Assembly: GCA_964411375.1 (NCBI GenBank)
Contig: CAYPKR010000002.1
Location: forward strand, 64,894 to 128,893
Direction of reading: 5' to 3'
Source: an uncultured Candidatus Saccharibacteria bacterium
Lineage (GTDB): Bacteria > Patescibacteriota > Minisyncoccia > Phycocordibacterales > UBA12088
Length of the DNA stretch: 64,000 bases
Shown here: piece after piece, positions 10,732-60,621 of the stretch
How the letters are laid out: the number at the start of each line of letters is the position of its first letter
Numbering within the stretch: the first letter of the stretch is position 1
Made by a program: the position numbers and the translations under genes
The notes under the pieces: model-generated
The model's input: the letters and a program-made list of their open reading frames with translations, nothing else
Told to the model about the DNA's origin: nothing
Databases searched by the model: none

Positions 10732-10749
10732 GAAAACCATACCAATCAT

Positions 10750-13226: not shown

Positions 13227-14557
13227 TGAATACACTGAAGCCTTCATATATCACACTGTTCATTCTATTTTGTGGCCTTGCCACTCCTATTTTTGCAATC
13301 GGAGACACCGTTGAGGATTTGCAAAACCGGATTCAGGACAGTAACTCGAAGATTCAGGCACTTGAGCAAGAAATTCAGCAATACCAAGGTCAGCTTCAAG
13401 AAGTCGGCAAACAGAAACAGACACTTCAACAGACACTTCAAACCATCGATATTTCACGTAAAAAAACAACGGCGGATATTAACGTTACCGTAAATCGAAT
13501 TAATTCGACCGAGGCTCAAATTCAAGAACTCTCGTACCAAATCGGCGACAAAGAAACCGAAATACTTCGTGACATCGCGGCAGTCCGAGAAGGACTTCGT
13601 GCAATGGACGCACAGGAATCAAATTCAGAAATTGAAACATTCTTATCACACGCAAGCCTCAGTGATTACTGGGATACGCTTCTCGACATCAACCAGTTTG
13701 AAAGCGCGCTTCGCGGAAATATTTCAGACCTTACGACGGTAAAATCGCAACTCCAAGACGCAAAGAAAAGTACTGAAGATAAAAAGCAAACGTTGAGTTC
13801 GCTTCAAAAACAGCTTACCAATCAAAAGGCAGTCCTTGACGCTAATCGCGCGGAAGAAAATAAAGTTCTTACTGAAACCAAAAACAAAGAATCAAACTAT
13901 CAAAAGATTCTTGCCGATAAAGTAAAGGCAAAGCAGCAATTTGAAGCAGAGTTGTTGGATTATGAATCAAAGCTCAAATTTGCACTCGATCCATCAAGTA
14001 TTCCACATACCGGAAATGGCGTTCTGTCGTGGCCATTTTCAAGTGATTATATGCAAAATTGTGCCAAATTAAGTAAGACGCTTGGAAATCCAAACTGCGT
14101 CACACAACCATTTGGAGACACAGCATTTGCAAAAGCTGGCGCATACAGCGGTAAAGGCCATAACGGTGTCGACTTTAGAGCACCAATCGGAACAGAGCTC
14201 CATTCAGTTCTTTCAGGAACAGTCCTCGGGACTGGTAATACCGACTCGATTAGAGGTTGTTATTCATACGGCAAATGGGTGCTTATCCGCCACGATAACG
14301 GCTTATCTTCGCTCTACGGGCATTTATCGGTTATTTCTGTATCTTCTGGCCAACATGTAGAAACGGGACAGGTAATCGGTTATAGCGGTCAAACCGGCTA
14401 TGCAACCGGTCCACACCTCCATTTGAGCCTATTTGCTTCGCAAGGTGTCCAAATCGTCAAATTGACGCAATTTACGGGCAAAGTAACGCCATGTGCAAAT
14501 GCCACAATGCCGGTAGCGCCTCTAAATGCATATCTCGATCCGCTCCAGTATCTATAG
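13226..14557 (+). CDS. M23 metallopeptidase with N-terminal coiled-coil (EnvC-like murein hydrolase activator)
   Basis: Signal/TM segment, a long Q/E/K-rich coiled-coil, and a C-terminal GHNGVDFRAPIGTEL plus GPHLHLSLF LytM domain. Confidence 0.85.
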   Translation: MNTLKPSYITLFILFCGLATPIFAIGDTVEDLQNRIQDSNSKIQALEQEIQQYQGQLQEVGKQKQTLQQTLQTIDISRKKTTADINVTVNRINSTEAQIQELSYQIGDKETEILRDIAAVREGLRAMDAQESNSEIETFLSHASLSDYWDTLLDINQFESALRGNISDLTTVKSQLQDAKKSTEDKKQTLSSLQKQLTNQKAVLDANRAEENKVLTETKNKESNYQKILADKVKAKQQFEAELLDYESKLKFALDPSSIPHTGNGVLSWPFSSDYMQNCAKLSKTLGNPNCVTQPFGDTAFAKAGAYSGKGHNGVDFRAPIGTELHSVLSGTVLGTGNTDSIRGCYSYGKWVLIRHDNGLSSLYGHLSVISVSSGQHVETGQVIGYSGQTGYATGPHLHLSLFASQGVQIVKLTQFTGKVTPCANATMPVAPLNAYLDPLQYL

Positions 14558-14629
14558 AAATAAATTTGATACAATAACCTTGTTCTCCTAATCTAATTTA
14601 TTTTTTAATAATCTAATTACATAGTATCT

Positions 14630-14854
14630 ATGCCATACAAAAGCATTCATATGGCGACGTTCATTCTTCTCGCAGTTGGCGGTTTAAACTGGCTAGCAGT
14701 CGGCCTCGGATATAACCTAGTTGAAATGATTTTAGGAAAAGAGTCCGTATTATCGCACTTCGTATATATCTTGGTTGGACTATCAGCTATTTATGAAATC
14801 GGAACCCATACATGGAATTGTCGAACATGCGTGGAAGAAAAGAAGAAAAAATAA
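14630..14854 (+). CDS. DUF378-family small membrane protein
   Basis: 74 aa with a GGLNWLAVG motif and two TM helices. Confidence 0.55.
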   Translation: MPYKSIHMATFILLAVGGLNWLAVGLGYNLVEMILGKESVLSHFVYILVGLSAIYEIGTHTWNCRTCVEEKKKK

Positions 14855-14874
14855 TCTCATTTATTTATATCGAT

Positions 14875-14906
14875 AAAAAACTTCCAGAAAATTCTGGAAG
14901 TTTTTT
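14875..14906. terminator. intrinsic terminator, bidirectional (A-run, hairpin, T-run)
   Basis: aaaaaa-cttccagaa..ttctggaag-tttttt immediately after the DUF378 gene. Confidence 0.7.
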
Positions 14907-15264
14907 ATTTGTAACGATCTAACAAGGAAATATATTCAAAAAAATATTTAAATAAAAAATAAAATATCGATGGGGTAGGAGATGGGCACTAAAAACTCTA
15001 TCTACATGTATATATTCACGGGCTTAAAGAGATACTCCCTCGGGTCTCCCTAGTATAATAGGTCGCAAAAGATATATTGTGCGACACTTAGCTTCTTTCT
15101 CCCCTAGAGCAGACGCTCTCAAAATTCCAGTAAAAAATATTTTGCGAGTATCACCTGCCCCGATAAAATCGGCTGAATTTTTTAGAAAATATTTTTTGTG
15201 TAATTTTATTAATATATTTTTTACTTCTCTTTTCGACATTTTAATTGTTCGAAAAAAATAAAAA

Positions 15265-15292
15265 ATGACCGGGGAAGTCTTCGGTCATTTTT
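15265..15292 (-). terminator. intrinsic terminator for the EVE-domain gene
   Basis: atgaccg..cggtcat hairpin with an A-run on the plus side (U-run on the minus transcript) and ttttt on the other side. Confidence 0.6.
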
Positions 15293-15324
15293 AGCCAATA
15301 TATGAGGATTGATACATCCCCTAT

Positions 15325-15789
15325 TTATAGGCGACTAGAGCTTTTTGTCATCTCAACAATTTTCTTAAAATGTTTTTCTCCAACTGGCTGAACTGATAAG
15401 CGCGAACCTGTTTGAGTCAAAACCATGTCATTAAACGTTCTGTCTAATTTAAGTGAAGCAAGTGTAATTGGATTTTTATATTCTTGAACGAATGCAATAT
15501 CGACTAAATCCCATATTGGTTTTTCTTTTGATGATTTTGGATCGAAATGTGAATCCTTAGGGTCGAATTGCGTTTTATCTGGATAAGACTCTTTCACTAC
15601 CTTTGCAACACCCACAATGGCTCGTTCATCACCGGAGTGATAGAAAAGAACCATGTCGCCTACTTTCATAGAACGCATATAATTTCGAGCTTGATAATTA
15701 CGGACTCCCGTCCATGCGGTTTTCTTCTCTTTCTTGAGATCTCGAATCGAATAGGCGCTCGGTTCGGTTTTCATGAGCCAATAGTTCAT
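15325..15789 (-). CDS. EVE (PUA-like) domain protein
   Basis: N-terminal NYWLMKTEP motif. 154 aa. Confidence 0.85.
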   Translation of the reverse strand: MNYWLMKTEPSAYSIRDLKKEKKTAWTGVRNYQARNYMRSMKVGDMVLFYHSGDERAIVGVAKVVKESYPDKTQFDPKDSHFDPKSSKEKPIWDLVDIAFVQEYKNPITLASLKLDRTFNDMVLTQTGSRLSVQPVGEKHFKKIVEMTKSSSRL

Positions 15790-15815
15790 AGGCTCAGTAT
15801 ACTATTTTAGTTTAC

Positions 15816-16466
15816 TTAGTTCTCAATCTTTCCGTACTCATACCAGTCAATATTTCTGGTGTAGAACATTACGAGACCAAGGAGAACGAAGACAATGAGC
15901 GAACCGAAAAGAAGCGCGTATTGCTCGAGCATCAAAATCACATAGAGATATCCGTATGCTGCAATCAAAAGTCCAAATAGTTTGCCAGTCTTTTCTCCAC
16001 TTCTAAGTACGGATTTGCTGTACATCGATATAAGCGCGAGTATCATCCCCGTTGCAACAATGTAGGCGTAATTGAATCCTATGTATTCGGCAAATGCCAG
16101 GAGGAGGAGATAAAAGAGTGCGAGTGCTGCGCCGACCAAAAAATATTGTATTGGATGTATCTTGATTTTTGACCCCACTTCAAAGAGAAAGAAGCAGCCG
16201 AATGTGAGCACAAAGAATAGTATCGCGTATTTGACGCTTCGGACGATTTTTCGGTAATCCGTTATTCCTCCTTCACTTCCCTCTTCGCTCTGAATTTGTT
16301 GTTGCGGAACTCCAGTCACTTCGGCAGGTACCGATTTTTGCTTAGCTTCTTCAAAAGCCGACTGACGTTCCTCTACGAGATCCAAGACCAAAAAGCTGAG
16401 GATGAGACAGACAACGCCAACAATTCCAATAAGCGCTAGTTTAAGGGTGATGTAGTCTAATTTCAC
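15816..16466 (-). CDS. membrane protein of unknown function; start uncertain
   Basis: The ORF track runs to 16637, but its first 57 codons read through the 16498-16540 terminator palindrome. A GTG at 16466 is the first start downstream of that hairpin. Multiple TM helices. Confidence 0.5.
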   Translation of the reverse strand: MKLDYITLKLALIGIVGVVCLILSFLVLDLVEERQSAFEEAKQKSVPAEVTGVPQQQIQSEEGSEGGITDYRKIVRSVKYAILFFVLTFGCFFLFEVGSKIKIHPIQYFLVGAALALFYLLLLAFAEYIGFNYAYIVATGMILALISMYSKSVLRSGEKTGKLFGLLIAAYGYLYVILMLEQYALLFGSLIVFVLLGLVMFYTRNIDWYEYGKIEN

Positions 16467-16497
16467 GCCATTATGAACTTCCGATGACTGGAGAAGG

Positions 16498-16540
16498 TTA
16501 CAACAATAAAACCGGCATAATGCCGGTTTTATTGTTGTAA
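16498..16540. terminator. perfect 21-nt-arm palindrome forming a bidirectional intrinsic terminator
   Basis: ttacaacaataaaaccggcat a atgccggttttattgttgtaa, with a GC core flanked by A/T runs. Confidence 0.65.
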
Positions 16541-16549
16541 TAAGTTTGC

Positions 16550-17152
16550 TTATTTTGAGAGTGCAAGCGTTGCAGTTGCTGCAGCACTGAGAGATGGCAT
16601 GCTCTGCTTTTTCCAGCATTTTGCGGACGCATTCCAAGGAGTTGTTCCCTGTCGCTCATAGAGATAGCGAGCGTACATGAGGTTTCCTTCAAGTGTGTGA
16701 AGATCAAGTCCAAGCTTTTTTGCCGTAGCACTGTGATAGCTTTCGTTGACCTGCATCACACCGACGTCTGCAGGGACTTGTTCGCCGCGATACACTTTAC
16801 CGTCGAGTGTAGTCTGACGATAATGTGATTCACAAGAAGCGATTAATTTCATGACCGGGATGTCGGCGAAATAGACTTCCACCTTTTCCTCGACCGTATA
16901 TTTATCCGAATTGAGAAAATCACTCATGCTTTCAGTCGGAGTCGACGTTGCCGATCCGTGCGAAAGCGATGAAGCAAACGCGATTGCAATAAGTGCGATA
17001 AGAATAAGCCTTAGTTTATATCCTAAAGGAAGTCGAAGGCGGTATGCCCTCTTCGCCGGCTCACCAAAACAGTGAGGCAACAAAAAATCCCGGGCCGACA
17101 CCCGAGATACGCTAATAAGACTACCAGAGCTCCAAATGCCGTCAATAATCAC
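16550..17152 (-). CDS. lytic transglycosylase-like (SLT/lysozyme-like) secreted protein
   Basis: CESHYRQ...DVGVMQVNE resembles the SLT catalytic-Glu and MQ motifs. An N-terminal hydrophobic signal segment is present. Start uncertain. Confidence 0.5.
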   Translation of the reverse strand: MIIDGIWSSGSLISVSRVSARDFLLPHCFGEPAKRAYRLRLPLGYKLRLILIALIAIAFASSLSHGSATSTPTESMSDFLNSDKYTVEEKVEVYFADIPVMKLIASCESHYRQTTLDGKVYRGEQVPADVGVMQVNESYHSATAKKLGLDLHTLEGNLMYARYLYERQGTTPWNASAKCWKKQSMPSLSAAATATLALSK

Positions 17153-29169: not shown

Positions 29170-31359
29170 TTAGGGATTTGAAACCGCGCGAAGCATGAAT
29201 TCTATACGATCAGCAAGAATGGAGTGTCCGGTTGCGTTTGGATGGAGAAGATCGCTGGAGAGAAATGGATTTCCGAGTATTCCTTCGAGCGCGTTTGGTA
29301 CATATGCGGACTGTGTATTTCTCGCGGCGTCTTTGTAATGATCATTAAGCGAAGGATCGAGGATTCCACCACCGAGTCCAACCATCAGAACAACCGCGCC
29401 TCTTGCTTGAATGCGAGTAGCGATTGTTTGGAGATTAGCGAATGTCTGCTCACTGGTGAGCGCTGGAGTGGTGACGTTTGCACCAGCACGCACAAGCGCC
29501 GCGCGGATTTGATTGGCAAACGCATTATCGCGAATCGCAATCGCTCGATCATACATTCGACGGAGTTCGTCATTGCCACCGAGGAATACGATGACGACTT
29601 TTGGATTTTTTGAGAGCACATCTGTATCGAGCCGCGCGAGCGCTTGCGCAGTGTTATTTCCCGATACGCCAGCGTTGATGATCGGTTTGCCCAGGCGATT
29701 CGAAAGCAGGGTTACATAATTTTGAGATTGCGGCACGCCGACCCCTGATGTCAGACTGTCGCCGAACGCAATAATATTTTGTCCGCTTGATGGGTAATTT
29801 TTGACTGGCCACTGATTGCCGCCCGGCGGAGTTCCTCCGCCAGTACCTCCGGTAGTGCCACCCGTTGTCCCACCAGTAGTGGTTCCTCCGGTCGTCGTGC
29901 CGCCAGTAGTAGTACCGCCTGTCGTTCCTCCCGAACCACCGATAGAAATTGCGCCTGAAATCGCTGACCTTGTGTAGCCATTATTTTTGAAATAACGGAC
30001 ATCGTATGTGCCAGGCGCCATTCCAGTGAACGTAATTGTTCCGCTTTGCGCAGCACCCGTGTACTGCCAGGTAATAAACGAATGATCGTCCGCTCCTTGT
30101 GTATAGATTCCGATCCAATCTTGCGAGAGGTTAGCGCCGCTCGGTGCGCTCCATGTCGCGGTGACAACGTTGCCGCTTGCAGTTGCAGAAATTGTATACC
30201 CGCCCGTTCCGCCTCCGGTTGTGCCACCAGTAGTAGTTCCTCCCGTTGTGTTTCCGCCAGTTGTCGACCCTGTTGTTCCACCTGTGTTTCCTCCGGTGGT
30301 TGTGCCGCCCGTGGTGCTGCCGCCAGTTCCAGGAGTGAATGTATTGCTTGCCGTTGCAGCGCGAACGTATCCATTATCTTTGAACATCCGAGCTTCATAG
30401 GTACCAGCCGGAAGATTCATATCAGAGAAACTCACCGTCCCCGATGTACCGGAAGCAGGAATATATTTCCATTCAACAAAAGAATGGTCATCAGACATTC
30501 CCTGATTGTAGATGCCGATCCAATCTTGGCTTCCCCGTCCTGACGGCGCAGTCCACGAAACAAGTGGCGTTGCTGATTGTCCTGAATTGGTAAAACTCAA
30601 AGAATATCCTCCTGTTCCTCCACCGGAGGTACCACCTGTAGTCGTACCACCAGTTGTTGTTCCGCCGCTGGTGCCACCGCTCGAAATGGTAATTGGGTTG
30701 GAGACAGCAACACGCGTGTAGCCATTATTCTTAAAGTAACGAAGATCGTAGGTGCCAGGCGCCATTCCCGTGAATGATACGGATCCGCTTGGTACTCCAC
30801 CGGTGTATTGCCATGAAATAAATGAATGATCATCACCTTGATTGTTGGTATATATACCAACCCAATCTTGCGAAAGATTACCGCTTGTCGGAGCATTCCA
30901 CGACGCGGTCACAACTCCTCCATTCGCACTTCCAGAAACGGTATATGCCCCCCCGCCAGTGGTCGTGCCACCTGTGGTGGTACCGGTCGTTGTTCCGCCG
31001 GTTGTGCCGCCAGAAGCTCCGACCGTAAATGAGGTTGAAACTCGGATCGTGTGAAAACCGCTAGTCAGATGCCGTATTTCGTATGTCCCTGGTGGAATAT
31101 TAGAAAATGTAAGCGTGCCACTCGTGTTTGTTGGATACTGGAATGCAACGTATCCGTAATTGCTTGCATTCACCGGATAAATGCCGATCCACTCGCTATT
31201 GATCCCTGCTGCCGCCTGCCCCGAATAGGTGACAGTGACGGTAGAGCCTTGCACTGACGCAGAAAGACCCGCGGTTTGCGCGAAAAGATGGGATACAGCA
31301 AACAATGAGCCGACAAAGGTGACGCCAAGCAGGAAGACAACCGTATGGATATGTTTCAT
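29170..31359 (-). CDS. secreted protein with four tandem ~90-aa beta-domain repeats, Gly/Thr linkers and a C-terminal SGNH/GDSL hydrolase domain
   Basis: Signal peptide MKHIHTVVFLLGVTFVGSLFAVSHLFA. Each of the four repeats carries DW(I/V)GIY..SF..W(Q/K)Y..G..(T/S)F..M.PGTY..R(Y/M)FKNNGY.R. The GDSL block is IIAFGDSLTSG, with GGND and DLLHPN blocks. Confidence 0.8.
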   Translation of the reverse strand: MKHIHTVVFLLGVTFVGSLFAVSHLFAQTAGLSASVQGSTVTVTYSGQAAAGINSEWIGIYPVNASNYGYVAFQYPTNTSGTLTFSNIPPGTYEIRHLTSGFHTIRVSTSFTVGASGGTTGGTTTGTTTGGTTTGGGAYTVSGSANGGVVTASWNAPTSGNLSQDWVGIYTNNQGDDHSFISWQYTGGVPSGSVSFTGMAPGTYDLRYFKNNGYTRVAVSNPITISSGGTSGGTTTGGTTTGGTSGGGTGGYSLSFTNSGQSATPLVSWTAPSGRGSQDWIGIYNQGMSDDHSFVEWKYIPASGTSGTVSFSDMNLPAGTYEARMFKDNGYVRAATASNTFTPGTGGSTTGGTTTGGNTGGTTGSTTGGNTTGGTTTGGTTGGGTGGYTISATASGNVVTATWSAPSGANLSQDWIGIYTQGADDHSFITWQYTGAAQSGTITFTGMAPGTYDVRYFKNNGYTRSAISGAISIGGSGGTTGGTTTGGTTTGGTTTGGTTGGTTGGTGGGTPPGGNQWPVKNYPSSGQNIIAFGDSLTSGVGVPQSQNYVTLLSNRLGKPIINAGVSGNNTAQALARLDTDVLSKNPKVVIVFLGGNDELRRMYDRAIAIRDNAFANQIRAALVRAGANVTTPALTSEQTFANLQTIATRIQARGAVVLMVGLGGGILDPSLNDHYKDAARNTQSAYVPNALEGILGNPFLSSDLLHPNATGHSILADRIEFMLRAVSNP
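29950..31272 (-). repeat. intragenic tandem repeat region (four ~300-nt domain repeats plus GGT/ACC-rich linker repeats)
   Basis: The repetition is visible at the DNA level. Several spurious out-of-frame ORFs translate to the same PPVVPPVV strings. Confidence 0.7.
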
Positions 31360-43794: not shown

Positions 43795-44596
43795 GGACTT
43801 TAGGAATTACTTCTACAAAACGTAGCCCTTGGAGAGTAAAAGGTGAAGCGGCAAGAACAGTTTCAAATGCGTCAGCAGGTTTTTCAAACACTGCGCCAAC
43901 CGATGCGATCAGGATGGTTTCTGCTCCAGGAAGTACGACAGGCGAATCGGTTGCGACCGAAACGCCACGCGGAAGTTTTATCAAAAAATTTCCACCGCCC
44001 TGCCCTGCGAGCGTCACGGCGATTGAGCTTGTCGCTGCAAGCAGAATTGCGGGCGTTTCGACGCTCGGAGATGAATACAGCACCACTTCGGAAGTTCCCT
44101 TTCCGGTATGCGAAATAGTTCCAACTGCAATGTCTCCCCACGCAACAACTGGGTCGTGTAGAGAAACACCGTCTTCGGTACCTGCATCAATCAGTATCGT
44201 GTCATAGGGAGTGTGTGGTGGACCACTCAAAACGCCCGCAAAAATACCTTTTGTCTCTCCTTTTTTTCGAAGCAAATCCATGAAAGTTTGATTGCTTGCA
44301 CGAAGTGCCGCAGTTGTTTTTTCCTTTGCTTCAAGTTCACTGATCGTATTTTTGAGACGAGCATTTTCTTCTGTGAGTGAACGATTTGATCTAAGTAGCA
44401 CTTGTATTCCCGAAAAACCACCGGTAATCCGATTTGATACAAACCAAATTGGTCTGCCGGCAGTAAAAATCGCCGAGCGAAGAAACGCCGGCGGTGCAAT
44501 AAAAAATAAAAGGATACATGCTCCAATACCCCCCGCAAGATAGAGCGTAAGTCGTTTTGATCTTTTGTTATGTTCCCGGCGAGAGCGCATCTTCAC
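43787..44596 (-). CDS. mreC: rod shape-determining protein MreC
   Basis: N-terminal TM, a coiled-coil (ENARLKNTISELEAKEK) and a C-terminal beta domain. Confidence 0.85.
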   Translation of the reverse strand: MKMRSRREHNKRSKRLTLYLAGGIGACILLFFIAPPAFLRSAIFTAGRPIWFVSNRITGGFSGIQVLLRSNRSLTEENARLKNTISELEAKEKTTAALRASNQTFMDLLRKKGETKGIFAGVLSGPPHTPYDTILIDAGTEDGVSLHDPVVAWGDIAVGTISHTGKGTSEVVLYSSPSVETPAILLAATSSIAVTLAGQGGGNFLIKLPRGVSVATDSPVVLPGAETILIASVGAVFEKPADAFETVLAASPFTLQGLRFVEVIPKVHE

Positions 44597-45653
44597 TTTC
44601 GATCAATACTTCCACATATTGCGGAAGATTCTCAATAATAACACCGGTTCCTCGAACGACCGAAGAGAGCGGATCTTGCGCGCGATAGACCGGAATCTGC
44701 AAAACCGAGCTTAAAAATTCTGGCATGCCACGAATCAAAGCGCCGCCGCCGGTTAGATGAATTCCTTTTTGCATCACGTCAGCAAGAACTTCAGGGGGCG
44801 TTGTTTCAAGAACTTCACGTACCGTTTCGACAAGTGTATCGATTGAGTGAGTGATTGCTTCTCGAATATCGGCATCAGTTATGACGATTTCGCGCGGGAG
44901 TCCAGTGACCAAATCTCGTCCGCGAACAGTCGCTTCAATCGGGTCTCCGGTTGCCGCGACTGAACATGCTGCAATTTTGAGTTCTTCTGCGGTTTTTTCA
45001 CCAATCAATATTTTGAATTCGCTGCGGATATATCCGGCGATATCGGCATTCAATTTATCACCTGCGATACGAAGATTTCGTGCACGAACAATTCCAGAGA
45101 GAGAAATGACCGCAATATCGGTAGTACCACCGCCAATATCGATAACCATGCTTCCCATTGGGGCATGTACCGGCAGTTTGATTCCGATTGCAGCTGCCAT
45201 TGGTTCTTCCACAATAAATACTTCGCGTGCACCAGCATTTTTTGCTGCATCCCTCACGGCACGTGTTTCTACGTTCGTGATTCCAGACGGAACACCAATC
45301 ACCACCCGTGGACCAAAAATAGTTCGTCGTCCTTCTTGCGCTTTATTAATGAGGTACGCAAGCATTTCCTCAGTAACTTCGAAATCTGAAATAACGCCAT
45401 CAACAAGTGGTCGGATGGCAACAATATGTCCAGGCGTGCGACCAAGCATGTCTTTCGCTTGCGTTCCAACGGCAACAACCTGTCCGGTTTTTTGATTCAC
45501 CGCAACAACGGAGGGCTCGGAAACGATGATTCCCTTTCCGCGAAGATACACAAGCGTATTCGCGGTTCCAAGATCGATACCAATATCGTTCGAAAGCAAA
45601 TGCGAAAATCGCCCAAACAGTTTATTTGAAATTTTATGAAGGAAATTTGGCAT
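44568..45653 (-). CDS. mreB: rod shape-determining protein MreB (copy 1)
   Basis: DIGIDLGTANTLVY, DIGGGTTD and actin-fold motifs. The start is taken at the MPNFLHK Met. Confidence 0.93.
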   Translation of the reverse strand: MPNFLHKISNKLFGRFSHLLSNDIGIDLGTANTLVYLRGKGIIVSEPSVVAVNQKTGQVVAVGTQAKDMLGRTPGHIVAIRPLVDGVISDFEVTEEMLAYLINKAQEGRRTIFGPRVVIGVPSGITNVETRAVRDAAKNAGAREVFIVEEPMAAAIGIKLPVHAPMGSMVIDIGGGTTDIAVISLSGIVRARNLRIAGDKLNADIAGYIRSEFKILIGEKTAEELKIAACSVAATGDPIEATVRGRDLVTGLPREIVITDADIREAITHSIDTLVETVREVLETTPPEVLADVMQKGIHLTGGGALIRGMPEFLSSVLQIPVYRAQDPLSSVVRGTGVIIENLPQYVEVLIESEDALSPGT

Positions 45654-45739
45654 ATATATCAAGACGCAAGTTTCCGCTTCCCGATTGGGGCGCATGAACC
45701 GCTACTCTTTCAAAGAAAATTGTTCGTCGTTTCGATTCG

Positions 45740-50348: not shown

Positions 50349-50433
50349 ATGGTAAGAATACTAAAGATATACACGTCAGAGAAATTGACATCCTTGTTCA
50401 AAGTAGTATTGTCGAAATTGAAAGGAGATGACT

Positions 50434-50677: not shown

Positions 50678-50715
50678 GGCGCGGTTCCTCTTGGGGCCGC
50701 GCCTTTCCTTTTCTT
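50678..50715 (+). terminator. intrinsic terminator
   Basis: ggcgcgg-N12-ccgcgcc-tttccttttctt. Confidence 0.7.
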
Positions 50716-50732: not shown

Positions 50733-53513
50733 TTATTTAGCGGGAATAGTTGGCGGAGGTTCAGGCTTACGAAATCGCTCCATAACTTCTGCTTCCACCT
50801 CGGCACGTGGTCGTCCAAAACGTTGATATGATCCTTGGCGGAGCATTTCTACCTGCCCCATATCGGTTGGAGCTGGCGCATTTGTCTGAATATTAAACGG
50901 CGAAGTTGGTTTACCATTTGCAAGAATACGGATGTACGCATTTCGATTGTCGACATTCATAAGATCATGCGCGGTAAATGTCGGTTCAAATTGTTTTTCC
51001 AAAAATGTTGCGTCATCTGGACCGACACGAAAGACTGCCATCGATCCGACGTTGCCGAAGACCGCATTTCGAATATCTTCGTCAATCTGCGCGATGAATT
51101 GGTGCGCGACGGTGAGCCCGAGTTTGTATTTGCGCGCTTCCGAGAGAATAGTCGCGATCGAATCAGTGGTGATATTTTGAAATTCGTCGATATAGAGATA
51201 AAACGGTGGGAGCGTTTGACCGTTTCCAACTGCGTCGACACGAGAAAGTGCTGCCATCAAAATCTTGCCGACCAAAATGAGTCCGATCAAATTGGCGTTG
51301 ATGTCGCCGAGCCTCCCCTTTGAGAGATTCACGAGGAGAATTTTCCGTTCATCCATCACTTCGCGGAAGCGGAACGCAGACTTTTCCTGCGCAATTATTG
51401 GACGCATGTAATCGTTTGCCGTGAATACATCGAATTTGTTGGTGATATACGGCACGATATTTGCGAGTGATGCTTCGCCCTGTGCCTTACTTGCAATTTC
51501 TTGCCAGAATTGATTGATAACTGGATTTTTTGAACGAGAAAGTTTGAGCATTCGAAATCTCGAATCAGCAAGAACACGCGAGACGTCGAGAAGTGTCGCA
51601 CCACTTGCCGGATCTTCAAGAACTAACGTCGTCGCATTTCGGAAATACTGCTCAAACGCAGGTCCCATCGATTCAGGAACCGCGCCATAGAGTTTGCGGA
51701 AAATAGAAAAGAGTTCGTTCACGACAAATGTTTTCTGCTCAGGAAAGCGCTGATCAAACTCGAGCATGTTGAGACCCATGACGCGATCAAGGTATGCGGG
51801 ATCAAAATAGATCACATCTTTATGACGCTCACGAGGCACTGACGCCAAAATATCTTGCACGTCGCTTCCGTGCGGATCGATAAAGCAAACGCCATTCCCC
51901 TCTTTGATATCCTGCACGATCATATTTTTGAGGAGCGTCGTTTTTCCGGTTCCGGTTTGTCCGATTACATACAGATGTCTGAGGCGATCTTCTGCGGTCA
52001 AATACGCTTTAGTATCGACTCCACGGAAGTTATTGGTACCAAGCAGTGTTCCGTCAGTTGCGAGACTCAGCGGTGCTGCAACCGAACCCGATTTTGCTTG
52101 TTTGAATTCTGGTGAGAGAAATGTTTCCTTCGCCGGAAAATGAATGAGCGATGCGATTTCACGGTATGAAAGAACCGATGCTTCGCTCGGTGAAAATTCA
52201 CGAAAGGTAAATTGATTGAGAAGTGTGCGATATGCACCTCCACGCTCCACTCGACTCCATTCGATGTGATTGCTTCCCGTTTCTGCAAATTGACCGAAGC
52301 TTGATTCGATATCGCGAAGCATCTCTTCACTACGCGCTTTTGAATCAGAAGACGCAAGGAGGCGAATATTGGCGAGCGCGAGCGGTGTTTCGATCTTCTT
52401 TTTGATGAGTTCGATCTTTTCGGTATCGATTGTTTTTTCCTTCTTTTCTTCCTCTTCTTTTTTCTTAGAATCCGCACCGAATAGTGAGCCGGCAAATGAA
52501 TGAATCATATCGGTTACGGGAGATTCGACTGCGCGATACGCATCCTTAAATTTCTCCCCTTTTTCCAAATGGCGGATTATTTCTGCGTAGCGCTTCGAGG
52601 TCATGAGATCTAAGGGCTTCAGTACAAATTGGATTGCGGCGCCTTCGTTGTGCTTCTTTATTTTTGAAAATGCAGAAAGAAGGACATTGAGGGGATCGGT
52701 CTCAAAGGTGTCGTACGTTTTGAGCGGCAATACTGGTTGTTCGGCAAGAGACGCGTGTGAGCCGATTGTAATCCCATTTTGGACAAAAATATTGTAATCA
52801 TTTTTTTCTTCGCGAATATGTCCATGCGGAAAGAGAGAGAGCGCCTGCTTTTCAAAAAGTCCGGCACGGCTCTGCGGGACCGAAACATAAAAAATGATCT
52901 CCTGCGTTCCGTCAGCAACAGCGATTTCAATGGTAAAAATTTCTTGCGCATGGTCGTGCTTGCCTGCGCCACCGAGCATTCCGGCATAAAATTGCTCCAT
53001 CGCGCTAATGAGTTCTTTGAAATTCTTTTCCGCACCATCGTCAGACTTGGTCGGAAATGTAATTTCATAGAGTGTCATCCGAAGATCTTCCGCGAGAGGC
53101 GTTTTTTCCGCAAGACCAGGAACCACATTTCCTTCTTTCAGAAATTCTATGAGCAGTCGGTGAAAATCGTCAGTTAAATGGGGATTATTTAAATTTTGAA
53201 CAACCGAGAGCGCATTTTTTACTCCCTTTTCAAACATGATTCCCATGAGCTCGCCCATGAATGCATCATCGCTTTCTGGCGGAAGATCAAGTGTCACCGC
53301 TCGTTGGTCAGCTTCAGTAAATTGATATTCAGGAGTGAGTACAGCGCTTGGAGTGACAGCGTGGTATTCCGAAATAACTTCTTGTGCAGCGGTATTCTCC
53401 GATTCAAAATGATTACTCTCGCCGAGTGCGCGTTCTCGTTCTGCGATTTCTTTTCGCAAATACTGAATTTCCTCCTCCGGTGAGGAAAATTTCGACTGCG
53501 CCTCGTATTCCAT
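50733..53513 (-). CDS. TraG/TraD/VirD4-family (type IV coupling-protein-like) P-loop ATPase with a ~470-aa N-terminal region of unknown function and no TM anchor
   Basis: Walker A GQTGTGKTT. Walker B LYIDEFQN. The C-terminal block KYKLGLTVAHQFIAQIDEDIRNAVFGNVGSMAVFRVGPDDATFLEKQF matches the TraG-D C-terminal domain consensus. Confidence 0.7.
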   Translation of the reverse strand: MEYEAQSKFSSPEEEIQYLRKEIAERERALGESNHFESENTAAQEVISEYHAVTPSAVLTPEYQFTEADQRAVTLDLPPESDDAFMGELMGIMFEKGVKNALSVVQNLNNPHLTDDFHRLLIEFLKEGNVVPGLAEKTPLAEDLRMTLYEITFPTKSDDGAEKNFKELISAMEQFYAGMLGGAGKHDHAQEIFTIEIAVADGTQEIIFYVSVPQSRAGLFEKQALSLFPHGHIREEKNDYNIFVQNGITIGSHASLAEQPVLPLKTYDTFETDPLNVLLSAFSKIKKHNEGAAIQFVLKPLDLMTSKRYAEIIRHLEKGEKFKDAYRAVESPVTDMIHSFAGSLFGADSKKKEEEEKKEKTIDTEKIELIKKKIETPLALANIRLLASSDSKARSEEMLRDIESSFGQFAETGSNHIEWSRVERGGAYRTLLNQFTFREFSPSEASVLSYREIASLIHFPAKETFLSPEFKQAKSGSVAAPLSLATDGTLLGTNNFRGVDTKAYLTAEDRLRHLYVIGQTGTGKTTLLKNMIVQDIKEGNGVCFIDPHGSDVQDILASVPRERHKDVIYFDPAYLDRVMGLNMLEFDQRFPEQKTFVVNELFSIFRKLYGAVPESMGPAFEQYFRNATTLVLEDPASGATLLDVSRVLADSRFRMLKLSRSKNPVINQFWQEIASKAQGEASLANIVPYITNKFDVFTANDYMRPIIAQEKSAFRFREVMDERKILLVNLSKGRLGDINANLIGLILVGKILMAALSRVDAVGNGQTLPPFYLYIDEFQNITTDSIATILSEARKYKLGLTVAHQFIAQIDEDIRNAVFGNVGSMAVFRVGPDDATFLEKQFEPTFTAHDLMNVDNRNAYIRILANGKPTSPFNIQTNAPAPTDMGQVEMLRQGSYQRFGRPRAEVEAEVMERFRKPEPPPTIPAK

Positions 53514-53660
53514 GCTCTGTATTATAGCTTGTGCAAGTGGAAATATTATTAATGAATGAATTGCTTTGTGAATAGCACAATAAACTACTTGTCAGCGCCA
53601 TTCATGCGATGTAATAGTAATAAAAGATCGGCGATGGGCGCCGACAGTACGGAGGTTGCT

Positions 53661-54278
53661 ATGTGCAGATACTCTCTTGAGCACGTGAGTTCTCGTGATG
53701 CCCGCCTCGGAGAAACAGTAACCATCGGTCACTCTTCGGCGTACCATGTTCCGGCAATGGTTGGCGACGACAATTGCGTCGTCTGCATCAGGGACGAAAC
53801 ACCCGTCCAGATTAACGGAGCGGTTCCTCCAGGGATTGGGATTACCAGTGGAGATCTTCTCATCTTCACTGAATATGGACTGGAGCACAGTCGCGGGTAT
53901 TACTACGATGGCTTCCGTACAGTGGAAGGGTTGGAGTTCCCCTTCAACGCACTGGCGGAACAACTCAAAGGAAGGGATGTTCACTTCATCGTGGCGCCTG
54001 ATCACGTAACAAAGATCAGCGAAGATCTCGGTGATCCTGTGATAGATCTTGCAATCATTGCCTATGACGCAGCCACAGATGCCATAGGCGAAGGAGTTCG
54101 TGTCGCACGCGAACATGCCGGCACAACCCTCACTGCCCTACTCGTGATTGCAGCATCGATTGGTGGGTTTTCATTCCTACTTCTAGTCGGCCGGTCGCGG
54201 CTTGAGGCGCACGCCGCGGGGACAGGTTCTCCGCGGCGACTTCTTTTTTATCGCTTTGCGATAATGCTCTTCTTGTAG
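53661..54278 (+). CDS. hypothetical GC-rich protein with a C-terminal TM anchor
   Basis: A strong GGAGG Shine-Dalgarno sits 5 nt before the ATG at 53661. 205 aa, with one TM helix in the C-terminal LTALLVIAASIGGFSFLLLV segment. Followed by a terminator hairpin. Confidence 0.45.
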   Translation: MCRYSLEHVSSRDARLGETVTIGHSSAYHVPAMVGDDNCVVCIRDETPVQINGAVPPGIGITSGDLLIFTEYGLEHSRGYYYDGFRTVEGLEFPFNALAEQLKGRDVHFIVAPDHVTKISEDLGDPVIDLAIIAYDAATDAIGEGVRVAREHAGTTLTALLVIAASIGGFSFLLLVGRSRLEAHAAGTGSPRRLLFYRFAIMLFL

Positions 54279-55261
54279 ACATCGAGGTGATCGAGTGCGA
54301 TCCCCGTTCCTTTCACTACGCAGTACGGTGCTTCTTTGGCGAGTACTGCTTTTACTCCCGTGCGGCGCAAAACCAATTCAGGAAAATTACGAAGCTGTGA
54401 CGTGCCACCGGTCATAATGATTCCTCTGTCAATAATATCTGATGCGAGTTCTGGCGGCGTTTCTTGGAGTACGTCTTTAATTGCTTTGATCATTTCACGA
54501 AGATCGCGTGCGATCGCTTTTGCAATTTCGTTGGTATGAACGTCTGCAGTCCGTGGAAGTCCGGAGAGAAGATCACGACCTTTAACGGTCATCACGATCT
54601 CTTCTTCAAGAGGTACCGCACTTCCGACTTCGATCTTTATTCGCTCTGCGGTTTTATCACCGATTGCGAGATTGAATGTTTTCTTTACATAATCCGCAAT
54701 CGCGTGATCGAGCCGATTGCCCGCGCATTTCACTGAAGTCGAGGCGACGATTCCGCCGAGCGAAATCACTGCGACGTCAATCGTGCCCCCTCCAACATCC
54801 GCGATCATGTGTCCGCGCGGTTCGTGAATTGGAATCCCCGCGCCAATCGCGGCCAGGATTGGCTCTTTCACCACGTACGCATTTTTTGCGCCAGCATTCA
54901 CCGCCGCTTCAACAACTGCGCGTCGCTCCGTTGAGGTAACTCCGGCAGGAACCGAAACTAACACGTCGGGACGGAACAGCGTCCACGATCCCATCGCTTT
55001 TCTGATGTAATAGCGAAGCATTGCTTCGGTGACGCGATAATCGGCGATAACGCCATCCTTCATCGGGCGATACGCAATGATTGATTCTGGAGTTCGGCCA
55101 ATCATTTCCTTCGCTTCGTTTCCCACTGCGAGAATTTTGTTGTCGATTTCAGAAACGGCAACGACTGACGGTTCATTGAGCACGATTCCTTTTCCGGGAA
55201 CAAAGACGAGCGTCGTCGTGGTGCCGAGATCAATTCCAAGTTTTTTCGTAAAAAAGGCCAT
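54248..55261 (-). CDS. mreB: MreB paralog (copy 2, actin-like)
   Basis: Full-length canonical MreB (LGIDLGTTTTLVF, DVGGGTID), 337 aa, not linked to mreCD. Confidence 0.88.
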   Translation of the reverse strand: MAFFTKKLGIDLGTTTTLVFVPGKGIVLNEPSVVAVSEIDNKILAVGNEAKEMIGRTPESIIAYRPMKDGVIADYRVTEAMLRYYIRKAMGSWTLFRPDVLVSVPAGVTSTERRAVVEAAVNAGAKNAYVVKEPILAAIGAGIPIHEPRGHMIADVGGGTIDVAVISLGGIVASTSVKCAGNRLDHAIADYVKKTFNLAIGDKTAERIKIEVGSAVPLEEEIVMTVKGRDLLSGLPRTADVHTNEIAKAIARDLREMIKAIKDVLQETPPELASDIIDRGIIMTGGTSQLRNFPELVLRRTGVKAVLAKEAPYCVVKGTGIALDHLDVYKKSIIAKR

Positions 55262-58719: not shown

Positions 58720-60621
58720 ATGCGATTACTGAAAGTCTATCCAATTCAGCGTGGGATTCCGAAGGATGCACTTTCGTATTTCACGGGAGAAAAAATTGAA
58801 GCAGGTGCGGTTATTTCAGTACCACTTCGAAACAAGACAACGGCTGCGGTCGTCACGAGTGTCGAAGAAGTTGCGGAAGCAAAGACAGAAATTCGAAAGT
58901 CAGATTTTACACTTAGAAAAATTGCACCGAAAGCACCGAAGTATCTTCTCTATAGCTCGTACATTCGTGCAATTGTTCGTGCGAGTGAATATTATGCCGC
59001 AACTCCGGGAGCACTTCTTGCACAAACAATTCCACGAACACTTTTTATTGATCCCACAAAGCTCGCAACTCCTAAACCAATTCGCACTACTCCGGGAGTA
59101 CAAGAAACAACCTCAGAAAAATTGGTATTCCAAGGAGACAACATTGAGCGACTTGAGCATCACAAAAATTTGGTACGTGAAGAATTCGCGAGTCGAAAGT
59201 CAGTATTTATTTTGGTTCCGACGATTCAAGACGGCGAGCGACTGTATGCATTTTTATCGCGCGGCATTCCGCAATTTACCTATTTACTCCATTCTGGTCT
59301 TTCGGAACGAGAAGCAAGGACGCGGTGGAACAAAGCGGTGACTGATCCACATCCGATTGTGATAATCGGCACTGGCTCGTTTCTTTCGCTCCCGCGATAT
59401 GACCTCGGCACTATCATTGTCGAGCGAGAAAATAGTTCAGCATATAAATCAATCTATCGCCCGTTTGCCGATATGCGTGTGATTGCAGAGCGACTTGCGG
59501 AAGAAATGCATGTGCGCCTGATTTTCGCTGATTCACCGCTTTCAGTTTCCAGCATGTATCGCGTGGGAGAAAATGATCTCGATCTTCGAAGCGCATCGAG
59601 ATCGAGAAGTATTTCAGTGGCAGATACATTTCTGATCGATATGCGTGAAGAAAAACCAAAGCATAAATCAGAAAAATTTGTCGTACTCGGAAAACAGTTG
59701 TTACAAGAAATGGCAAAATCCCTCGCCGCGCATGAAAATATTTTTCTCTTCACTGCGCGTCGCGGACTCTCTCCCATCACCGTATGCGAAGATTGTGGTA
59801 ATGCCGTTCTCTGCGATATCACCAAAACTCCCGTCATTCTCCATAAAGGTCCGAAAGGAAATGTGTTTGTCTGTCATTCCTGTGGCGCGATGCGTCCTGC
59901 AGATGAGCGGTGTCGCACCTGTGGATCGTGGAAACTTCAAACACTTGGTATCGGTAGTGAGCTTGTTGAAGAAATTGTGCGAGAAATATTTCCAGATGCG
60001 CCGATCTTTGTAATCGACAAAGATAAAACCAAGACACATCGAGAGGCGGTGAAAGTCGCGGAAAAGTTTGCAAACTCGCGTGGAGCAATTCTCCTTGGAA
60101 CCGAAATGGCGCTTTCCTATCTTCCTGAATCAGTTCCAACAATTGGGATTGTATCGATCGATTCCCTGCTCTCGCTTCCCGAGTGGAATGCGTACGAGCG
60201 AGTTTTCGGCATTCTTATACGACTGCGCAGTACCGCTGGAAACAAACTGATCGTACAGTCGAGAAAAACTGAATCAGAAGTTCTCGATCATGCACTGAAA
60301 GGCGCTCTCAATGATTTCTATCGAAGTGAAATTGATATGCGAAAACAATTTGGCTATCCTCCATTTTCAACGTTCATAAAAATTACCGTCTCGGGAAGCG
60401 CAGCCGTTGTCGAAGAAGAAATGAAAGAAATCGAGCGCGTATTTGCGCCATTTGGACTCTCGGGTCGCTCTCACTTAATGCACACCGGAAAAAACATATA
60501 TATGATGCACGCATTTTTGCGAATCGACCGATCCGAATGGCCAAAAAATGATATCGTGGCGCTCTTAAAAACCTTGCCACCAGACATTACCGTTACGGTT
60601 GACCCAGAAAGCATTTTGTAA
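58720..60621 (+). CDS. priA: primosomal protein N-prime (PriA)-like with degenerate Walker A and B
   Basis: N-terminal 3-prime-DNA-binding domain. Cys-rich zinc region CEDCGN..C..CHSCG..CRTCGS and C-terminal domains are present. The positions of GxGKT and DEEH read QGDNIERLE and ERENS. Confidence 0.75.
   Translation: MRLLKVYPIQRGIPKDALSYFTGEKIEAGAVISVPLRNKTTAAVVTSVEEVAEAKTEIRKSDFTLRKIAPKAPKYLLYSSYIRAIVRASEYYAATPGALLAQTIPRTLFIDPTKLATPKPIRTTPGVQETTSEKLVFQGDNIERLEHHKNLVREEFASRKSVFILVPTIQDGERLYAFLSRGIPQFTYLLHSGLSEREARTRWNKAVTDPHPIVIIGTGSFLSLPRYDLGTIIVERENSSAYKSIYRPFADMRVIAERLAEEMHVRLIFADSPLSVSSMYRVGENDLDLRSASRSRSISVADTFLIDMREEKPKHKSEKFVVLGKQLLQEMAKSLAAHENIFLFTARRGLSPITVCEDCGNAVLCDITKTPVILHKGPKGNVFVCHSCGAMRPADERCRTCGSWKLQTLGIGSELVEEIVREIFPDAPIFVIDKDKTKTHREAVKVAEKFANSRGAILLGTEMALSYLPESVPTIGIVSIDSLLSLPEWNAYERVFGILIRLRSTAGNKLIVQSRKTESEVLDHALKGALNDFYRSEIDMRKQFGYPPFSTFIKITVSGSAAVVEEEMKEIERVFAPFGLSGRSHLMHTGKNIYMMHAFLRIDRSEWPKNDIVALLKTLPPDITVTVDPESIL

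Follow-up and report, generated by a model that had tools for sequence, protein, structure and literature searches.

A soluble DUF8128-family ATPase of Patescibacteria joins a coupling-protein-like engine to a predicted VirB4-like domain

We analysed a putative motor gene in a 64-kb window (the whole stretch of DNA under study) and tentatively favour the reading that its product is a soluble, three-module ATPase of the VirB4/VirD4 branch of the FtsK-HerA superfamily, docking through a VirB4-like domain, probably on a separately encoded Patescibacteria T4SS. The gene is a 926-aa ORF on the minus strand and its reading frame is uninterrupted. Its modules and motifs are arranged as follows.

50733..53513, minus strand: DUF8128-family ATPase ORF, complete, 926 aa plus stop codon (ORF list and translation)
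53109..53513, minus strand: module 1, N-terminal helical module (aa 1-135), helices only in the AF2 models
52104..53096, minus strand: module 2, alpha/beta core of DUF8128 with a predicted VirB4-N-terminal-domain-like fold (aa ~140-470)
50874..52049, minus strand: module 3, FtsK/HerA-class nucleotide-binding domain of VirB4/VirD4 type (aa ~489-880)
51936..51962, minus strand: Walker A motif (P-loop), GQTGTGKTT (aa 518-526)
51354..51737, minus strand: all-alpha insertion within the ATPase (aa ~593-720), at the position of the T4CP all-alpha domain
51174..51194, minus strand: Walker B region, YIDEFQN (aa 774-780), with the catalytic pair D776-E777
50736..50873, minus strand: C-terminal tail, two helices and a Pro-rich end (aa 881-926; AF2 secondary structure)

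The initial annotation had found the 470-aa N-terminal half unassignable to any family. A family does exist: the protein matches entry P0001 exactly, and precomputed annotation places PF26449 (DUF8128) on this very protein and on all 120 listed homologues. The UniRef title of a short-form relative likewise reads 'DUF8128 domain-containing protein', and DUF8128 was not mentioned in the literature searched. When the Pfam set without the DUF8128 model was searched with aa 1-490 of the query and of 37 family members, nothing matched; no DNA-binding domain was detected by Pfam search in the query or in family members.

Module 1 carries the conserved motifs SPEEEIxYLR and NPHxxDDFHR and is fused to the rest of the protein here, while in related lineages it is encoded as a separate small upstream gene: short family members (~800 aa) lack it, and directly upstream of them, abutting their start, lies an ORF of 129-162 aa that aligns to module 1 (hhalign probability 70.7%, E 3.8e-5). 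Module 2 is an alpha/beta domain with a Lys/Glu-rich loop of low confidence at aa ~335-360. The AF2 model of the full-length protein has a pLDDT of 84 and a separate model of the N-terminal half a pLDDT of 80.

The fold of the N-terminal half was assigned by Foldseek against the PDB alone. The best 14 matches of the N-terminal model were all chains of TrwK, the VirB4 protein of R388. No pure ATPase-domain structure appeared among the matches, from which we infer similarity to the N-terminal domain of VirB4 rather than to its ATPase domain. Judging from a predicted model and one solved protein (TrwK), the ~330-aa domain that precedes the ATPase appears to have the fold of the VirB4 N-terminal domain. 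HerA N-domains gave no match to the N-terminal model. The likeness to VirB4 is structural only, a point that counts against T4SS docking: TM-scores are low (~0.35), hhalign of the N-terminal profile with a 22-sequence alignment of VirB4 N-terminal domains returned a probability of 0.1%, and the comparison with TrwK was likewise negative.

The protein has no membrane anchor, as had been noted before. Residues 1-700 contain no hydrophobic segment, and the sole Kyte-Doolittle peak (1.94, aa 738-756) falls on a helix inside the predicted ATPase core. The AF2 N-terminus consists of soluble helices followed by the alpha/beta domain, with no hydrophobic helix. TM helices are normally absent from the VirB4-type architecture.

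The C-terminal half is an ATPase with intact motifs. The Walker A and Walker B sequences and a TraG-D_C-like block (RKYKLGLTVAHQ at aa 794-805 and FGNVGSMAVFRVGPDDATFLEKQF at aa 819-842) had been read from this half, and all are present in the translation. Across the 120 listed homologues, G518, Q519, T520, G521, G523 and K524 of the P-loop and D776, E777, F778, Q779 and N780 of the Walker B region are invariant. Conservation is reduced in the tail (aa 881-926). We compared this half with the Pfam models that the initial annotation had named, and the outcome was mixed. DUF87 (1.6e-6), T4SS-DNA_transf (4.7e-5; 22.9 bits versus a cut-off of 20.1) and TraG-D_C (1.2e-4; 22.5 versus 22) matched weakly and in the C-terminal half only, the DUF87 match spanning just the P-loop stretch at aa 500-549. 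TrwB_AAD_bind stayed below its cut-off (20.2 versus 20.5 bits) and FtsK_SpoIIIE reached only E 0.01, at the P-loop. The curated HMM cut-offs for T4CP families are reached marginally or not at all, which counts against the favoured reading.

An assignment to the T4SS branch, on the TraG/VirD4-like side, was supported by sequence. NCBIfam models favoured SXT_TraD (6.5e-15; 54.6 bits versus a cut-off of 366) and VirD4-like CD1115 (7e-9) over VirB4 models (1e-4 to 1e-2). Aligned by hhalign, the family profile matched TrwB with an E of 3.6e-7, over 58 columns only, versus 3.4e-3 for TrwK. Plain tblastn with TrwB as query recovered the family in nearly all related loci, whereas TrwK and archaeal VirB4 queries did not find it there. 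Annotated T4CP-type plasmid proteins share 27-35% identity with it over ~390 aa; they include haloarchaeal proteins adjoining a 'conjugal transfer protein'. Sequence searches of the PDB, by single protein or by family profile, found matches to the P-loop alone. By sequence comparison, the ATPase module is closest to coupling proteins of the TrwB/TraD/VirD4 type.

The protein shares features with both known classes of T4SS ATPase and differs from each. Like the T4CPs (TrwB of R388, TraD, VirD4/TraG), it has the Walker motifs and, within the nucleotide-binding domain, an all-alpha insertion; the TrwB, TraD and plasmid comparisons above show sequence similarity as well, but the HMM scores lie at or below the curated family cut-offs. 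Unlike them, it has no N-terminal transmembrane domain but ~490 aa of soluble modules, and its gene belongs to the chromosome, is inherited vertically and stands in strings of housekeeping genes, unlinked to relaxase, Dtr or T4SS genes in the window and within 10 kb on either side in 83 related loci. With VirB4 (TrwK; the C-terminal domain of Thermoanaerobacter VirB4, PDB 4ag5) it shares the overall plan, a soluble alpha/beta domain of ~330-400 aa followed by the ATPase, without TM helices, and the models predict a VirB4 fold in both halves. It differs from VirB4 in having the extra helical module and in showing no sequence-level likeness to VirB4 N-terminal or P-loop models.

We asked how the family is distributed. 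A total of 1672 matches came from at least 370 species-level genomes, and all were titled as Patescibacteria or its lineages, or bore generic labels such as 'bacterium'. We found this large family, conserved over its full length, only in Patescibacteria, in the Parcubacteria/Paceibacteria group. Between the window and a related locus (L003), the DUF8128 protein is 55% identical, compared with 57% for MurA, 59% for Frr and 59% for Fmt; inheritance is vertical, and the rate of evolution is that of a housekeeping gene.

The gene neighbourhood, too, is typical of a housekeeping gene. On the upstream side, 32 of 63 loci have map, and on the downstream side 28 of 61 have ndk; outside the lineage of the window, the commonest context is secY-adk-map-[gene]-ndk. 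Conserved synteny with the mreB paralog, which had been suggested as something to look for, holds only in one narrow lineage, the window with L089, L003 and L090, and was seen in 2-3 of ~63 informative loci. All-against-all clustering of neighbours in the 83 loci yielded only housekeeping genes (map, ndk, adk, secY) as conserved partners, and the unknown ORFs that flank the gene differ between loci. Core genes fill the remainder of the window, where neither a T4SS channel gene nor a relaxase or integrase occurs, and a search of the 10 kb on each side of the gene in the 83 loci likewise turned up no T4SS genes, relaxases, integrases or defence partners. The initial annotation had described such surroundings for the window and had proposed a non-conjugative role. 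Because the setting is one of core genes without conjugation partners, a non-conjugative or non-canonical role stays plausible.

Patescibacteria account for a large share of bacterial diversity and have an epibiont lifestyle. In the one tractable species the T4SS is essential, yet neither a coupling protein nor a relaxase can be recognised in its cluster. For Southlakia, the essential T4SS cluster was found to lack a coupling protein that can be recognised (PMC10633639). Unlinked 'T4CP homologues' had been tallied in the thousands by genomic surveys but not described: 5,713 VirD4-like homologues were counted in 2,918 of 3,035 Patescibacteria genomes, only 148 of them near virB4 (Quinonero-Coronel et al. 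2025, PMC12102498). The DUF8128 protein fits this class, being matched by VirD4-like HMMs, far from virB4 and nearly universal in the phylum, but that paper gives no domain architecture. We describe here a predicted fold like that of the VirB4 N-terminal domain, the lack of a TM anchor, a helical module that is either fused or split off, and the map/ndk surroundings. The Parcubacteria version is a conserved soluble protein with a putative VirB4-like docking domain, a fused or separate helical module and an intact coupling-type engine, and it is a concrete candidate for substrate coupling to the Patescibacteria T4SS.

We propose that the protein, like its structural relatives, would form an ATPase ring. 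In place of TM helices, the VirB4-like N-terminal domain would bring it to the membrane by docking on a membrane complex, and module 1 may act as an adaptor in this docking. The most plausible such complex would be the chromosomal Patescibacteria T4SS (virB4-trsD-virB3-virB6-pilins), whose genes lie elsewhere with no coupling-protein gene linked to them. ATP hydrolysis might then energise substrate delivery or assembly for the T4SS. The window and the 83 loci show no physical or genetic T4SS link, which counts against docking on a T4SS. In the only Tn-seq data, from Saccharibacteria, T4SS genes were essential and a T4CP homologue was non-essential (PMC12102498); this result counts against a T4SS coupling role only if that homologue is of the DUF8128 type.

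A bolder reading, which we regard as possible but doubtful, is that DUF8128 is a third, hitherto undescribed lineage of T4SS-class motors. It would combine a VirB4-type docking domain, a coupling-type engine and a detachable helical adaptor in a core, operon-embedded gene found throughout Parcubacteria. Its role would be that of the 'missing' coupling ATPase, free of TM helices, for the essential Patescibacteria T4SS, or else that of a new housekeeping translocase derived from it. As a natural hybrid architecture the family is relevant to the evolution of T4SS ATPases, and it could be an evolutionary intermediate that bears on the divergence of VirB4 and T4CPs.

Several other explanations were weighed against T4SS docking. 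The one that survives best, though we judge it unlikely, is an exapted translocase that works on DNA independently of a T4SS. Its site of action would be cytoplasmic or membrane-associated, and it might, for example, help ComEC/ComFC and type IV pili to take up transforming DNA, or serve recombination or repair. None of the loci searched links the gene to a T4SS, the exaptation or non-conjugative use of Patescibacteria T4CP homologues has been explicitly left possible (PMC12102498), and DptH and two DNA translocases, HerA and TrwB, are among its nearest relatives in structure. A few loci with the gene near comFC, type IV pilus genes or rmuC hint at other DNA-related roles: comFC and then pilM-pilO-pilB-pilT-pilC come after the gene in the Wolfebacteria locus L091, and in L093 rmuC overlaps its stop. 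Such surroundings are rare, however, with comFC in 2, pilM in 4 and pilB in 1 of the ~85 loci searched, and chance proximity is likely because type IV pilus genes are abundant in these genomes. Apart from this family, only T4SS ATPases are known to have the VirB4-type N-terminal domain, and the lack of a detectable DNA-binding domain also argues against this role. We rejected a general linkage to comFC or type IV pili, which is confined to these few loci. If the protein does work without a T4SS, a major bacterial lineage would possess a new translocase in its core gene set.

It is improbable that the protein is a highly divergent true VirB4, that is, a T4SS assembly ATPase rather than a coupling-type one. 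The two-domain architecture without TM helices would suit a VirB4. However, PF03135 (CagE_TrbE_VirB) and PF19044 (P-loop_TraG), both of which match TrwK, found no match in the DUF8128 protein, and TIGR00929 reached only E 0.01 (14 bits versus a cut-off of 643); hhalign and BLAST detect the likeness to TrwB and not that to TrwK. Moreover, Patescibacteria own a separate canonical VirB4 clade: VirB4 occurs in ~80% of their genomes and is reported as one copy per genome adjoining trsD/virB3/virB6, in Paceibacterota close to dnaA/dnaN (PMC12102498). The DUF8128 gene has none of these genes nearby and is not encoded with virB3, virB6 or virB8 in the window or the 83 loci.

Less probable again is an FtsK-analogous motor for cell division or chromosome segregation, tied to MreB and the cell-wall machinery. 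In the window and its three relatives the gene does adjoin mreB2-murA within a segment rich in mreBCD, PBP2 and dcw genes, but this is the linkage confined to 2-3 of ~63 informative loci. The DUF8128 protein, unlike FtsK/SpoIIIE, has neither a TM domain nor a gamma (KOPS-binding) domain, and the related loci L073 and L076 encode a canonical FtsK with TM helices, motor and gamma domain. A replacement of FtsK by this protein was ruled out on the latter ground.

We consider very unlikely, and largely refuted already by context, both an anti-phage or conflict-system ATPase (mad8-, DptH- or HerA-like), a role that the initial annotation had entertained, and an ordinary conjugative coupling protein of an integrated element: a PADLOC mad8 match (6.5e-16, ATPase only), weak HerA/DndH matches and a 708-aa Bradyrhizobium plasmid relative that lies among CHAT and TPR genes (homology to the ATPase domain only) speak for them, but the protein has no HAS-barrel N-terminal domain, the gene has no NurA, Sir2, DUF4297, Dnd or methyltransferase partners nearby, the neighbours tested had no PADLOC matches (on which ground a defence system was ruled out), there is no relaxase, integrase, repeat or compositional shift, the N-terminal half found no match by tblastn among 72,556 plasmids, phage matches to the whole protein cover aa 377 onward only, and the gene keeps its place in housekeeping strings, with slow, uniform conservation at a housekeeping substitution rate, in at least 370 species.

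The gene is not part of a GC-rich island, as had been supposed. Its GC content is 0.463, compared with 0.4595 for the whole window, and falls at the 50th percentile of equal-sized windows. With GC at the window median and a housekeeping-like substitution rate, horizontal acquisition was ruled out together with the island. No RNA elements or tRNAs were found near the gene, and two local signals flank it.

53545..53572, minus strand: promoter-like site, TTCACA-16-AATAAT, 32 nt 5' of the ATG (consensus scan, prediction only)
50678..50703, strand not assigned: GC-rich hairpin of 11 bp with 9 G-C pairs, 30 nt 3' of the stop (terminator scan and sequence)

The hairpin is common to the DUF8128 gene and to two convergent micro-ORFs. 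Its T-tract lies on the plus strand only, so it would presumably end the minus-strand transcript of the DUF8128 gene too. The two micro-ORFs have Shine-Dalgarno sites and run on the plus strand toward the hairpin, in agreement with the terminator-bounded convergent cassette described initially.

The 926-aa ORF proposed in the initial annotation (50733-53513, minus strand) was recovered in the ORF list and by translation, and a motif check found in it all the motifs that had been quoted:

aa 518-526: Walker A, GQTGTGKTT
aa 774-780: Walker B, YIDEFQN
aa 794-805: RKYKLGLTVAHQ
aa 819-842: FGNVGSMAVFRVGPDDATFLEKQF

The C-terminal half of this protein (the target) was matched weakly by the Pfam models DUF87 (1.6e-6), T4SS-DNA_transf (4.7e-5), TraG-D_C (1.2e-4) and TrwB_AAD_bind (3.1e-4), and by the NCBIfam models SXT_TraD (6.5e-15) and VirD4-like CD1115 (7e-9). 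No model in the local Pfam/NCBIfam sets matched aa 1-490. Kyte-Doolittle analysis agreed with the claimed lack of a membrane anchor: an N-terminal hydrophobic helix is absent, and the sole peak (aa 738-756) is a helix within the predicted ATPase core.

The exact protein is present in a public collection, where 1672 homologues were scored. The best 120 of these 1672 are 903-991 aa long, cover 96-100% of the query at 53-84% identity and come from sources named Parcubacteria, Nomurabacteria, Lloydbacteria, Taylorbacteria and Minisyncoccia. Precomputed Pfam annotation places PF26449 (DUF8128) on the query itself and on all of these 120. Thus, the N-terminal half, thought at first to fit no family, is catalogued, though as a domain of unknown function. 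Identity to the query in the 120-sequence alignment is ~70% in the ATPase half versus ~41% in the N-terminal half, and both halves contain invariant residues. A scan with one genome per species found relatives in at least 370 genomes; the 80 loci kept from it were all Patescibacteria or its lineages by title, or carried generic labels. The "uncultured Candidatus Saccharibacteria" titles on some TPA assemblies may be such generic labels. The target is 55% identical to its syntenic counterpart in a related genome (locus L003), where MurA (57%), Frr (59%) and Fmt (59%) diverge on a par with it, showing that the gene evolves at a housekeeping rate.

By sequence, the engine of the target is coupling-protein-like. 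TraD and VirD4 models of NCBIfam outscore VirB4 models by far, and hhalign of the family profile gave E 3.6e-7 with the coupling protein TrwB versus E 3.4e-3 with TrwK, the VirB4 of R388, where the P-loop alone aligned. TrwB detected the target gene in nearly all loci by plain tblastn; TrwK and a haloarchaeal VirB4-like protein found it in none. Precomputed Pfam labels on the best 120 of the 1672 homologues comprised DUF87, T4SS-DNA_transf, TrwB_AAD_bind and TraG-D_C, and no VirB4 family. The ATPase half is also 27-35% identical over ~390 aa to plasmid proteins labelled "T4SS DNA-binding domain" or "TraM recognition domain" (517 plasmids). Haloarchaeal plasmid relatives of this half adjoin a "conjugal transfer protein", and a 708-aa relative on a Bradyrhizobium plasmid, with homology limited to the ATPase, has CHAT and TPR gene neighbours. 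The N-terminal half had no match in plasmids, and phage matches to the whole protein covered only aa 377 onward.

AlphaFold2 returned a full-length model with a mean pLDDT of 84 (120 sequences), and a separate model of aa 1-490 reached a pLDDT of 80 and a pTM of 0.76 (37 diverse sequences).

Structure table for the target, with the value for each entry.
VirB4 C-terminal domain (4ag5): 28.3
DptH/DndH C-domain: 27.0
TrwB: 25.8
HerA: 25.4
DotL: 23.0
Cag-beta: 20.9

On the predicted structure, the engine is a member of the VirB4/VirD4/HerA branch. As in coupling proteins, a helical insertion (aa ~593-720) sits where their all-alpha domain does. When the N-terminal model was compared with all PDB chains by Foldseek, the top 14 were TrwK chains (E 1e-6 to 1e-3, probability 0.99-1.0, with low TM-scores of ~0.35). 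Pure ATPase-domain structures (4ag5, TrwB, HerA) were missing from this list, from which we infer a match to the N-terminal domain of VirB4. This likeness, which draws on predicted models and one solved homologue (TrwK), appears at the level of fold only: a Pfam scan of 37 N-terminal sequences found nothing, and the N-terminal profile reached a probability of only 0.1% in hhalign with an alignment of 22 VirB4 N-terminal domains. With a coupling-type engine sequence and a VirB4-type N-terminal fold, the target joins a VirB4-type front half to a coupling-protein-type engine.

The first helical module of the front half may be detachable. Searched as a profile, the N-terminal half gave 2752 cluster representatives (E <= 1e-3), and the best 150 of them include a short form of ~790-840 aa (Wolfebacteria, Minisyncoccia) that starts at about query residue 135-150. 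In all three short-form loci fetched, a small same-strand ORF of 129-162 aa lies flush against the ATPase gene start or overlaps it:

L091 (Wolfebacteria): 7602-7997
L092: 7479-7967
L093: 7615-8004

The alignment of these three small proteins, one of them divergent, is colinear with query-family residues ~36-126 (hhalign probability 70.7%, E 3.8e-5, 84 columns) and includes the motif NPHL-D-(F/L)H. Sequence comparison thus lends moderate support to a gene fusion or fission; the module would then serve the ATPase as a functional partner, not as a linker.

The remainder of the 64-kb window consists of core genes, in agreement with the initial annotation:

cell wall and division: mraY, ftsW, murG, Mur ligase, mraW, two PBP-type transpeptidases, mreB-mreC, murA
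translation: several aminoacyl-tRNA synthetases, frr, def, fmt
replication and repair: dnaB, recR, rmuC, holB, priA-like gene
other: rseP

A 633-aa ORF (58720-60621, plus strand), with a marginal match to the PriA 3'-DNA-binding domain alone (E 4.2e-5), keeps its place beside def-fmt in relatives, there without Pfam annotation, and may be a divergent PriA-like helicase.

The gene order in the target's own lineage is murA, mreB2, a variable opposite-strand ORF, the target, variable ORFs, holB, frr, rseP, proS, mreB1 and mreC, and the murA-to-mreC order is kept in the window and in related loci L089, L003 and L090. Both mreB paralogues are full-length (44568-45695 and 54248-55261, minus strand) and are separated by 9 kb. 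An mreB-mreC-(mreD?)-PBP2 string begins with one, murA precedes the other, and both positions are kept in L003 and L089. The suspected synteny with the mreB paralogue holds in the window and these three loci but is not general. Clustering of neighbour genes across 83 loci gave a broader picture, with mreB adjoining the gene in no more than 2-3 of them. Of the informative loci, 32/63 have the methionine aminopeptidase gene map upstream in the same orientation, and 28/61 have the nucleoside-diphosphate kinase gene ndk downstream. Because adk and secY are frequently found farther upstream, the gene is often the tail of a secY-adk-map string. Neither the window nor the 83 loci showed a relaxase, an integrase or a T4SS channel gene, all three of which had been noted as absent nearby, and neither showed a defence partner.

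The DUF8128 gene as such is already known, catalogued in Pfam and present in the literature among unlinked Patescibacteria "T4CP homologues". The literature searched nowhere mentions DUF8128 and nowhere describes its VirB4-NTD-like fold, the TM-anchor-free hybrid architecture that results, a helical module that is either split off or fused, or the gene's housekeeping secY-adk-map / ndk position. The hybrid architecture and core-gene status should be noteworthy to T4SS specialists.

The target has a conserved ATPase active site, three modules, no membrane anchor, core-gene behaviour and no local partner genes. The ATPase might, by analogy with VirB4, TrwB and HerA, assemble into a ring; its VirB4-like domain might recruit it to a membrane complex. 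In the R388 machine, cryo-EM places the VirB4 N-terminal domain in contact with VirB3, VirB8 tails and the adjacent VirB4. The most economical membrane partner would be the Patescibacteria T4SS, and we tentatively favour, at somewhat less than even confidence, a motor that docks on it via the VirB4-like domain. VirB4 occurs in ~80% of Patescibacteria genomes, and its gene in Paceibacterota is located close to dnaA/dnaN, together with trsD, virB3, virB6 and pilin genes; VirD4-like homologues number 5,713 in 2,918/3,035 genomes, only 148 of them near virB4 (PMC12102498). Southlakia depends on its T4SS, an essential system whose gene cluster lacks any recognisable coupling protein or relaxase (PMC10633639). 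The target, whose function we infer, makes this "missing coupling protein" question open to direct testing.

A T4SS-independent translocase, acting with ComFC and pili in DNA uptake, or acting in repair, is unlikely but keeps an appreciable share of our belief, and a few gene neighbourhoods speak for it. In L091 (11268-18379), comFC follows the short-form gene within 1 kb, then pilM, a PilO-like gene, pilB, pilT and pilC; in L093, rmuC (10456-11460) overlaps the short-form stop codon. However, such neighbours are rare among other loci (comFC 2, pilM 4, pilB 1). That the target is a very divergent true VirB4 is improbable, given the sequence evidence and the gene context. An FtsK-like division motor is less probable still: the mreB linkage is narrow, and canonical FtsK, with N-terminal TM helices, a motor domain and a C-terminal winged-helix gamma domain, is encoded close to the DUF8128 gene (a few kb away) in L076 (15631-17916, minus strand) and L073 (11816-14122, minus strand), showing that a normal FtsK exists alongside the DUF8128 protein. 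Context and evolutionary rate leave very little room for a defence ATPase or mobile-element coupling protein.

A promoter-like site lies close upstream of the target ATG (consensus scan), and a strong hairpin lies 30 nt beyond its stop. Two short plus-strand ORFs run toward this hairpin, confirming the convergence with terminator-bounded micro-ORFs:

50385-50412, plus: promoter-like TTGACA-16-TATTGT, 5' of the micro-ORFs
50428/50434-50550, plus: micro-ORF 1, 38-40 aa, one hydrophobic helix
50561-50668, plus: micro-ORF 2, 35 aa, one hydrophobic helix
50678-50703: GC-rich 11-bp terminator hairpin, 3' of the micro-ORFs
53556-54278, plus: 240-aa ORF between mreB2 and the ATPase gene, opposite in strand to both

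Both micro-ORFs have strong Shine-Dalgarno sites (GAAAGGAG and GGAGGAG), and their products may be small membrane proteins. The ATPase gene-holB interval differs in content in each relative examined:

L089: ORFs of 78 and 60 aa
L003: ORFs of 420 and 194 aa
L090: five ORFs (163, 827 and 887 aa, a 111-aa DUF5663 protein, a 447-aa Na/H exchanger) and an additional 35-aa ORF

The 240-aa ORF matched no Pfam family, has a hydrophobic C-terminal end and overlaps the mreB2 end by its final 30 nt. The same slot is vacant in L003 but occupied in L089 by an ORF of 177 aa and in L090 by one of 491 aa, the latter with a weak TAT-signal match; it is a variable insertion point adjoining a conserved gene. Across the 83 loci, the unknown ORFs on either side of the target gene varied between loci and had no Pfam match.

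The "GC-rich island" first described around the target did not hold up: its GC of 0.463 (window 0.4595) falls at the 50th percentile among window stretches of equal size, and the only locally GC-richer kilobase nearby is that of mreB2 (0.525). The lowest-GC patch of the window (14000-16700, GC 0.37-0.40) contains an EVE-domain gene (15325-15789, minus strand). An ORF in the same patch (15816-16637, minus strand) matches the CreD model in its C-terminal third only, is overlapped by a 200-aa ORF without Pfam match (16550-17152) and may represent a foreign or disrupted gene. The GC-richest part (0.50-0.52) contains the gene for a 729-aa protein (29170-31359, minus strand) with a C-terminal GDSL lipase/acylhydrolase domain. 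The segments before this domain give weak partial matches to models of the SpaA, fn3 and SKICH types, and the enzyme is probably secreted or located at the surface.
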